The translations under genes were made by a program, and so were the position numbers. Of a stretch of 11,272 nucleotides of DNA, positions 9,503-11,272 are shown one piece after another. The stretch is taken from the IMG/VR virus record IMGVR_UViG_2690316311_000002; one strand, 5' to 3'. Under the pieces are notes generated by a model, which was not told where the DNA came from, did not search any database, and was given only the letters and a program-made list of their open reading frames with translations. Numbering within the stretch: position 1 is the first letter of the stretch; each line of letters begins with the position of its first letter. Origin of the DNA: a virus (lineage: Duplodnaviria; Heunggongvirae; Uroviricota; Caudoviricetes).

Positions 9503-9988
9503 CTACCTGATATTACTGCTACTGTTGCATGTTACCGTGTTTCCAAATCCTGAATTGCAGTTTGTATATGTGTCAACGCGTGTTGGGTAAGGTTGAGTTA
9601 TAACAGGCTGGCGCGCTTTTTGCTCGATCGCTTGCATTGTGTTTACAGCCTGATAATTCAATAAAGCCTGCTGGAATGCTTGGCTTTGTGCTATTTGTTG
9701 GGCTTGTTCTTGGCTTTGTAATTGAACATAAAGATTCTGAAGCTCAAGTCTTGCCTGTGCGTCACTTATCTTGCCTTCATCGACACCTTTCCCGAGCATC
9801 TTTGCAGCAAGGACATACAGCTTAGGTGTTGGTGCTGATGCCATGCGTGAGTCGTTCTTCACACTGGCATCAAGGCAATTAGCCATATCGCTAAGCTTTT
9901 GATAGCGTTGTTCGCAACTTGCTTGATAGTCACTTACTTTTGCGCATCCAACCAGCAGAAACGGGATAATTAACAGTGATTTTTTCAT
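9503..9988 (-). CDS. Predicted outer-membrane lipoprotein, uncharacterised accessory gene (candidate superinfection-exclusion or lysogenic-conversion factor)
   Basis: Start chosen at the internal ATG (9988..9986) rather than the track's upstream ATG, because AAGGAG lies about 10 nt upstream and the product then begins MKKSLLIIPFLLVGC: a basic n-region, hydrophobic core and lipobox L-V-G-C (signal peptidase II type). Residue +2 after the lipid Cys is Ala, not Asp, implying Lol sorting to the outer membrane in E. coli-type hosts. The mature part has a Gln-rich helical segment and four further Cys. Opposite strand to all structural genes. Confidence 0.7.
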   Translation of the reverse strand: MKKSLLIIPFLLVGCAKVSDYQASCEQRYQKLSDMANCLDASVKNDSRMASAPTPKLYVLAAKMLGKGVDEGKISDAQARLELQNLYVQLQSQEQAQQIAQSQAFQQALLNYQAVNTMQAIEQKARQPVITQPYPTRVDTYTNCNSGFGNTVTCNSSSNIR

Positions 9989-10058
9989 ATGGTTAACTCT
10001 CCTTAGTTTTTCACAGGATATCATGAAGGCAATGCCATTTTAGCCGGAAACTAGATTT

Positions 10059-10325
10059 CTATGTTTCCTTTTTATTATTGCTATACATGGTCTTAAGCGT
10101 TTCAAAAACCATTTTCTTAACCATATCAGATTGTTGTTCTGCCATACGCTCTGCATCATCAATGTAAACGGATGCAGAGCTTTGTTTAGCCAACGATTCT
10201 TCAATCGCTGCAATTATCTCTGAGTTCAGCGACCTGTTATTCATCTTCGCGCGCTGTTTAATTTTCGCGTGGAGTTCATGCGGAAGTCTCAAGTGAAACT
10301 GCGCCTCGTCGTATTTGCTGTACAT
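10059..10325 (-). CDS. mnt: Mnt-like ribbon-helix-helix transcriptional repressor (Arc/MetJ superfamily)
   Basis: Translation from the ATG at 10325..10323 gives MYSKYDEAQFHLRLPHELHAKIKQRAKMNNRSLNSEIIAAIEESL...DDAERMAEQQSDMVKKMVFETLKTMY, which aligns with P22 Mnt as I recall it (...FNFRMPMEVREKLKFRAEANGRSMNSELLQIVQDAL...DAERLADEQSELVKKMVFDTLKDLY). GAGG lies 8 nt upstream of this ATG; the track's longer start (10358) has no RBS and adds 11 residues absent from Mnt. Confidence 0.85.
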   Translation of the reverse strand: MYSKYDEAQFHLRLPHELHAKIKQRAKMNNRSLNSEIIAAIEESLAKQSSASVYIDDAERMAEQQSDMVKKMVFETLKTMYSNNKKET

Positions 10326-10446
10326 CCTTGATGCCTCACCAGTTGGGTGGAATGGCATCGTAACCTACTGGATAAATACTCAATAGTACCATTTCGGTAT
10401 GCAATCACATCATGGTTGCATCATATCATTCTTCTGGAGCAATGAA
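10326..10446. promoter_or_regulatory. Divergent intergenic region between mnt (leftward) and tailspike (rightward); presumed promoter/operator region
   Basis: 121-bp AT-rich spacer between divergent starts. Contains inverted repeats GATGCC-N18-GGCATC (10330..10359) and ATGCAA-N11-TTGCAT (10399..10421) and the tailspike RBS GGAG (10436..10439). No convincing sigma-70 -35/-10 pair could be fixed by eye, so exact promoter positions are not called. Confidence 0.4.
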
Positions 10447-11272
10447 ATGTCAGATATCACCGCAAATGTTGTGGTCAGCATGCCTTCGCAACTCTTCACT
10501 ATGTCTCGCTCTTTTAAAGCCGTAGCCAATGGAAAAATTTATATCGGTAAAATTGACACTGACCCGGTAAATCCAGAAAACCAGATTCAGGTTTATGTGG
10601 AAAACGAAGACGGTTCTCACGTTCCTGTTTCGCAACCAATCATCATTAACGCTGCTGGTTACCCTGTATATAACGGACAGATTGCCAAGTTCGTAACTGT
10701 GCAAGGCCATTCTATGGCTGTTTATGATGCATACGGTGCGCAGCAGTTCTATTTTCCGAATGTGCTAAAGTATGATCCAGATCAGTTTAAGGGCAATCTC
10801 CTGAGCGAAGATCACTCACTTGGCGACTCTCTAGTCATGCATAACCCACAGTTTGTCGATAGCACATCGACCATTCTCTCAAAAAAGCTAACTATCGACC
10901 TGAGGACGCTTACAGACTACGGGTTTGCTGAGGGAAACACCGGTGCTCAGAACAAAGCTGCATTTCAGAAGGCTATTGATGATGCTACGTTGCCAACTGA
11001 GATTGTTATACCAGAGGGGGCGTTCATTGTTGACCCTGGTATTACGATTAAGAATACTGTCACCATGATACGAGGTGCTGGCGCATATCAGTCCAGAATT
11101 TTCTCTACGGGTACAGCGGCACCGATAATCACGCAACAAGATGGGGTAATTACGTTCTGCGAGTTCAGGGACTTTGGTCTTGACGGAAATGGCTACGCAG
11201 CTAACGGCATCAGTCTTACTGAAGCCAACCACATTAAAATAGAAAATATTGACGTGGTTAATACTAATAACA
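10447..11272 (+). CDS. Tailspike protein (P22 gp9-like head-binding domain plus a divergent receptor-binding/catalytic domain), 5' partial, continues past the window
   Basis: Translation from the ATG at 10447 gives [97 protein letters not shown]...[10 protein letters not shown], closely matching the P22 tailspike N-terminus I recall ([59 protein letters not shown]...). GGAG lies 7 nt upstream. Absent from the ORF track only because it has no stop in the window. Confidence 0.9.

Follow-up and report, generated by a model that had tools for sequence, protein, structure and literature searches.

Related tailspikes

The tailspikes of phages P22 (gp9), Sf6 (gp14) and HK620 (gp9) resemble the protein described here in their head-binding domain, genome position and overall build (head-binding domain, neck, β-helix, C-terminal domain), but their bodies have no detectable sequence similarity to its own and their target glycans are different. 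Two other proteins have a related body. The tail protein of Escherichia phage N7 (MH717096, Lederbergvirus) has the same architecture and length class and a homologous body; its gene is identical over gene nt 169–512, which cover the 3′ half of the head-binding domain and the neck, whereas identity falls to ~55–59% in the body beyond residue ~175. The specificity of N7 may differ from that of the present tailspike because of this low body identity. No paper turned up when the literature was searched for phage N7 and its accession.

The second relative is a Uetakevirus tailspike of 873 aa (E2865_Prophage_RBP in Pas et al.; P0031), encoded at L003:10001-12622 and L004:10001-12622. It is present in the same O26 genomes and shares the body from residue ~165 to ~693 (protein identity 93–94% to ~100%, DNA ~99%), but in place of the P22 head-binding domain it carries its own TSP1/gp66-type anchor (PF18668, ~279 residues), together with a diverged neck and a different 3′ end and terminator. 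The gene belongs to an epsilon15/phiV10-like prophage next to ppx/ppk, with a lone gtrA, holins and a GH19 endolysin after it.

The Lederbergvirus protein itself has been described. Pas et al. (2023, Virol J, PMC10408124) list RM10386_Prophage_RBP in Table S1 as Lederbergvirus, O26 and HGT (NZ_CP028126.1), use it as the representative of the O26 subtype, and pair it with a Uetakevirus prophage receptor-binding protein (RBP) as evidence for horizontal transfer; by their account neither prophage genus has conserved recombination motifs. Among the non-O157 serogroups of Shiga-toxin-producing E. coli, O26 is the leading one, and O26-specific receptor-binding modules are sought for detection phages, tailocins and typing, uses to which this protein has already been put.

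Identity of the tailspike gene

The window (the whole stretch of DNA analysed, 11,272 nt) contains on its forward strand an open reading frame that starts with ATG at 10447 and runs stop-free to the window end (275 codons, 826 nt). A Shine–Dalgarno-like GGAG at 10436–10439 (+), read from the sequence, lies 7 nt 5′ of the start codon; a scan for promoters and terminators around the gene start gave nothing above shuffled expectation. Over these 826 nt, many E. coli O26 genomes carry a chromosomal gene with 100% identity, among them RM10386 and the reference O26:H11 strain 11368, in both of which the gene is annotated as encoding a phage tailspike protein of 707 aa (WP_001280420.1). The first 275 residues of that protein equal the window translation, and RefSeq gives the same accession for RM10386 locus tag I3U_RS19900; the window protein is thus RM10386_Prophage_RBP, with no sequence difference. 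Since the protein is itself the O26 representative, it also falls within the subtype as defined by at least 30% identity over at least 60% coverage to that representative. The window end cuts the gene; the full gene, with the remainder up to residue 707, lies at L001:12001-14124.

Three features place the protein in the P22-like (gene 9) tailspike family: a PF09008 N-terminus, a position at the end of a P22-type late operon (beyond the ejection-protein genes and an immI-like region), and a C-terminal body with a right-handed parallel β-helix. Window 10447–11272 is very probably the 5′ 39% of the tailspike gene, equivalent to P22 gene 9, of a Lederbergvirus prophage of E. coli O26, and we hold the explanation as a whole, including mosaic origin and O26 binding, with the same high confidence. 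The earlier interpretation of the gene as a mosaic tailspike is therefore supported, and the observation behind it confirmed, its matches not being due to chance; the mosaic build and O26 specificity of exactly this protein were already published, and what we add is the map of its junctions.

Residues 1–113 (10447–10785, +) form the head-binding, or particle-attachment, domain, as the preliminary description had proposed from the sequence. They match the Pfam profile Head_binding (PF09008) from position 1 to 113 of 113 (E=5.2e-68; 226.9 bits against a cutoff of 24), and solved tailspike N-termini in the PDB are matched for both P22 (E=3e-52; 87/114 residues identical, 76%) and Sf6 (E=3.5e-68; 104/114, 91%). 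The P22 alignments end at residue 115, corresponding to nt ~10790, in agreement with the point at which divergence from the P22 endorhamnosidase had been placed. The neck, or linker, follows (residues 114–167; 10786–10947, +) and marks where homology to tailspikes with other types of anchor begins. In the family alignment (A1) all anchor types can be aligned from residue ~114–118, at LRxDLxS...GxSLV; the other anchors found in the family of this body are PF18668 (in two sizes), the T7-type PF03906, and unassigned anchors of 250–390 residues. Amino-acid identity in the neck is 100% to phage N7 and 10–55% to the Uetakevirus copy. In the assembled particle residues 1–113 would dock the spike, presumably a trimer, onto the phage tail, with ~114–167 serving as the neck.

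Recombination junctions

The tailspike gene has at least three junctions: the family-wide one at residue ~114, a recent crossover at window 10946–10958, and a third ~40 nt before the stop codon. The module-swap point had previously been set at nt ~10790, and this position stands as the family-wide junction; the crossover that gave this gene its O26 body is ~160 nt downstream of it, at 10946–10958. Pairwise DNA alignment with the N7 tail protein gene gives a zero-mismatch tract from 10615 to 10958 (+; gene nt 169–512), beyond which, from gene nt 513 on, identity drops to ~60%. Against the Uetakevirus tailspike gene the pattern is reversed: the two sequences are unrelated up to gene nt ~450, dense mismatches end at nt 499, and only 4 mismatches occur in nt 500–720 (the end of the tabulated range). 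Identity to the Uetakevirus copy in 30-nt segments is 93–100% up to gene nt 900, and the last 500 nt of the gene are near-identical up to ~40 nt before the stop; past this point the two sequences are unrelated, and remain so downstream. The end of N7 identity and the start of Uetakevirus identity together delimit a crossover zone at 10946–10958 (+), codons 167–171 (AQNKA).

The gene is a recombinant. It has the 5′ part up to gene nt 512 in common with phage N7, and the body (gene nt ~500 to ~2085), at ~99% DNA identity, in common with the tailspike that these O26 strains also carry in their Uetakevirus (epsilon15/phiV10-like) prophage; a third source supplied the ~40 nt at its end together with the Acyl_transf_3 gene downstream. 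The crossover falls inside the very motif that had been quoted as pectate-lyase-type, and its site is the cap helix of the β-helix, the most conserved block of the family. This mapping is a new, small detail added to the picture of Pas et al. For engineering, it points to residue ~168 as a natural place to join modules, one already tried by evolution; the published chimera has its joint at residue 120 (PMC12737597), and published delineations put the end of the anchor at 126.

A separate stretch of similarity links the 3′ ends of the two relatives. N7 (L005:5530-5680) and the Uetakevirus tailspike gene (L003:12520-12670), the bodies of which are only ~55% identical, have in common a block of ~150 nt with ~84–100% identity that takes in a terminator hairpin (AAAAAAGAGAGGGAAATATCCCTCTCTT) and the ~100 nt at the end of the gene. 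By its sequence this block may be a 3′ exchange handle. The present gene is without it and runs instead into the acyltransferase gene.

Fold of the body and candidate catalytic residues

The O26-type receptor-binding body begins at residue 168, with residues 168–275 (10948–11272, +) inside the window, as delineated by Uetakevirus identity, Pfam Beta_helix (PF13229) and an AlphaFold model. The motif that the preliminary description considered typical of pectate-lyase-fold depolymerases was located at residues 157–201 (10915–11049, +), which from the translation, Pfam and the model comprise the cap helix and first rungs of the β-helix. The corresponding Pfam match is weak (Pect-lyase_RHGA_epim, PF12708, residues 156–220; E=2e-4) and below threshold, at 21.6 bits against a cutoff of 27. 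Residues 157–201 are the most conserved block of the family, with N169, A172, P189 and G191 invariant. A check for a β-helix fold on the full gene, as had been recommended, gave concordant results from two sources: the full-length protein scores above the PF13229 threshold (35.3 against 25.9 bits), and an AlphaFold2 model agrees. This model was computed as a monomer with 23 homologues and with a query (P0001) one residue off the window protein. It has a pLDDT of ~90 over residues 150–707, which are arranged as a long β-helix followed by C-terminal β-sandwich domains, with a helix at 166–178 and strands after it. Residues 1–148 have a pLDDT below 50, because few alignment rows carry the head-binding domain, and were ignored in the model; the identity of that domain is taken from sequence. 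The body accordingly folds as a pectate-lyase-like right-handed β-helix, with the parallel helix spanning residues ~150–500 and the β-sandwich domains ~520–707.

As a side observation, the last ~55 residues (651–707; L001:13951-14121; …PTSGFWDIGERVINSAPASGQPKAWTC…) are 44–49% identical to tail proteins of unrelated phages, namely a ‘pectate lyase superfamily protein’ of Caudoviricetes sp. and proteins of Bacillus phage C30-1 and Enterobacter phage fGh-Ecl02. These matches suggest a widely shared C-terminal module.

We propose that the β-helix is the part at which the O26 O-antigen is bound and, most likely, cut. E345, E368 and D388 are invariant across the 23 homologues, down to 26% identity, and are spaced 20–23 residues apart, or about one helix rung. 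Judged by this conservation, they are the likeliest candidates for the catalytic carboxylates, and the spike, assembled as a putative trimer, would act as an endoglycosidase on the O26 repeat. A binding-only module, comparable to the adhesin PfbA, would instead recognize the O26 O-antigen and leave it intact. We regard such a role as unlikely: invariant carboxylates on successive rungs are the catalytic pattern of β-helix glycosidases, and the characterized P22-like tailspikes (P22, Sf6 and HK620) are, to our knowledge, all endoglycosidases.

Specificity for O26

The preliminary description had left the target glycan open; it can be named as O26 from the published subtype representative and from a chimeric phage, and our own genome count agrees. 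In the chimeric phage RBP-CBA120-9 (Viruses 2025, PMC12737597), residues 1–168 of CBA120 TSP3 were joined to residues 120–707 of the RM10386 tailspike. On O26:H11 strain BAA-2196 this phage gave 3,978,650 RLU/s, compared with 58–101 for phages without the O26 module on the same strain, and on O77, O78, O103 and Salmonella it gave 82–110 RLU/s. Its luciferase signal on O26 was obtained, yet it formed neither plaques nor spots (PMC12737597). A tailocin carrying the 93–94% identical Uetakevirus copy was active only weakly. The donor of the chimera is given as I3U_RS19900 in the legend to Figure 1 of PMC12737597 and as WP_038987731.1 in its Table 2; a cluster look-up did not reconcile the latter with WP_001280420.1, the protein that agrees with the donor range 120–707 and the label ‘Lederbergvirus’. 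That residues 120–707 recognize O26 cells has been shown experimentally in the literature, and the O-antigen itself as the receptor rests on correlation with serogroup.

To this correlation we add a count across 5,426 complete E. coli genomes. DNA of the distal domain was found in 105 of them, every match having at least 99% identity, and a probe for the O26 wzx gene, with its recall confirmed from the annotation at each matched site, was positive in 108. Among the matches listed, 44 genomes were common to both sets, where 42.5 would be expected if one set were nested in the other and 0.85 if the two were independent (P~1e-74); the relation between the sets is derived by a sampling argument from these listed subsets, and not from the full intersection. 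The domain-positive genomes are essentially the O26 wzx-positive set, with occurrence confined to O26 hosts, and the prophage is present in nearly all E. coli O26 strains. The domain DNA occurs at 140 places in the 105 genomes, with up to 3 per genome: many O26 strains have the body in 2–3 copies, of which some at least are on a Uetakevirus chassis. Among 50,697 phage genomes, a tblastn search with the body returned only N7 and three short C-terminal matches, and the O26 body itself was in no sequenced free phage of that collection.

The link to O26 might alternatively reflect clonal descent within the O26:H11 lineage, with another surface structure of that lineage as the receptor. Most complete O26 genomes do belong to one STEC lineage, and the luciferase data on O26 come from O26:H11 strains only and include no O-antigen mutant (PMC12737597). 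However, the same body occurs in these strains on two unrelated chassis, Lederbergvirus and Uetakevirus, which argues for selection by the receptor over simple inheritance. O26 wzx-positive genomes of atypical size also exist (4.8–5.0 Mb; chicken, goat), and one of these, the chicken isolate FDN-24, carries the domain. Moreover, O-antigen or capsule is the target of all characterized P22-like β-helix tailspikes. Clonal descent is therefore quite improbable as the explanation, and we retain the O26 O-antigen as the receptor.

Class of enzyme

The top structural neighbours of the body include lyases and epimerases (AlgE4, RbmB and alginate lyases), and a polysaccharide lyase could be suspected on these grounds. 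The glycoside hydrolases GH110, GH28 and GH87 have equal structural scores, however, so that the fold does not tell lyase from hydrolase; the bodies of the P22, Sf6 and HK620 tailspikes are not the closest structural neighbours. The chemistry of the substrate is more informative. The O26 O-antigen repeat reportedly (Manca et al. 1996) consists of L-Rha, L-FucNAc and D-GlcNAc, with no uronic acid. A literature search for the structure of the repeat unit gave indirect support only, in the form of a mention of the α-L-Rha transferase WbuA (PMC6519341), which partially supports the presence of rhamnose. Since β-elimination needs a uronic acid, and the repeat as reported, and as partly supported, has none, a lyase is very improbable.

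A P22- or Sf6-type endorhamnosidase with merely ordinary divergence, the reading against which the mosaic interpretation had been set, is just as improbable and already contradicted: phmmer does carry the Sf6 gp14 alignment to residue 255, through a weakly similar cap motif (DFGV..DNYQAIQNAID), and the L-rhamnose reported in the O26 O-antigen would make some endorhamnosidase activity possible, but residues 114–707 have no sequence-detectable solved relative, the best phmmer match against the PDB having E=0.98, with unrelated proteins returned and the P22, Sf6 and HK620 bodies not matched. A family profile searched against the PDB likewise matched anchors and necks only, with nothing informative for the catalytic part.

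Returning to the endoglycosidase, a more far-reaching proposal may be formulated in two parts: (i) the β-helix body (residues ~150–500), for which no homologue is solved or characterised biochemically, would be the founding member of an uncharacterised family of glycoside hydrolases acting on the O26 repeat through E345, E368 and D388, and (ii) the cap-helix motif and the 3′ end/terminator block would be the handles by which Lederbergvirus and Uetakevirus prophages recombine. We put this forward tentatively, as the two parts taken jointly are somewhat more doubtful than credible.

Prophage surroundings

Upstream of the tailspike gene lies a P22-type late region with genes for coat, gp4, gp10, needle, DNA-transfer and three ejection proteins. 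Downstream, the order is tailspike, a gene for an Acyl_transf_3 membrane acyltransferase, intS, and the tRNA-Arg gene beside yfdC that is the attachment site at which the prophage is integrated. The acyltransferase gene (PF01757; 380 aa) is intact and lies just past the window end, at L001:14195-15337; its phage relatives have at most 36% identity, and phage N7 has no such gene downstream of its tail gene. Its location between tailspike and intS is the position of Oac in Sf6, and the order tailspike, acyltransferase, integrase resembles that of Sf6. By this analogy the gene is probably an Oac-like gene for lysogenic conversion by O-antigen modification, and may O-acetylate the O26 antigen in lysogens.

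A gene for a Mnt-type repressor (Pfam Arc and Repressor_Mnt; 10059–10358, −) is directly upstream of the tailspike gene and divergently transcribed; N7 differs in having an arc/ant pair at the corresponding place, which is absent here.

The window opens with 127 nt from the end of an IS3-family insertion sequence, and the junction at 127/128 falls at codon ~60 of the scaffold gene. The reverse complement of this part resembles an inverted repeat and the start of orfA of the IS629/IS1203 type. The insertion sequence part matches 3,672 of the 5,426 E. coli genomes, and the exact junction with the scaffold gene was in no complete genome of that collection. With its scaffold gene broken by this element, the prophage of the strain from which the window comes is probably defective.

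An open reading frame of 173 aa at 9503–10024 (−) begins with a lipoprotein-like signal (MKKSLLIIPFLLVGC); a Pfam search with it gave no match, and a role as moron or exclusion gene is conceivable. Window and strain 11368 differ by a single SNP, at nt 9961, which lies within this reading frame, and the protein accessions of RM10386 and 11368 differ there.
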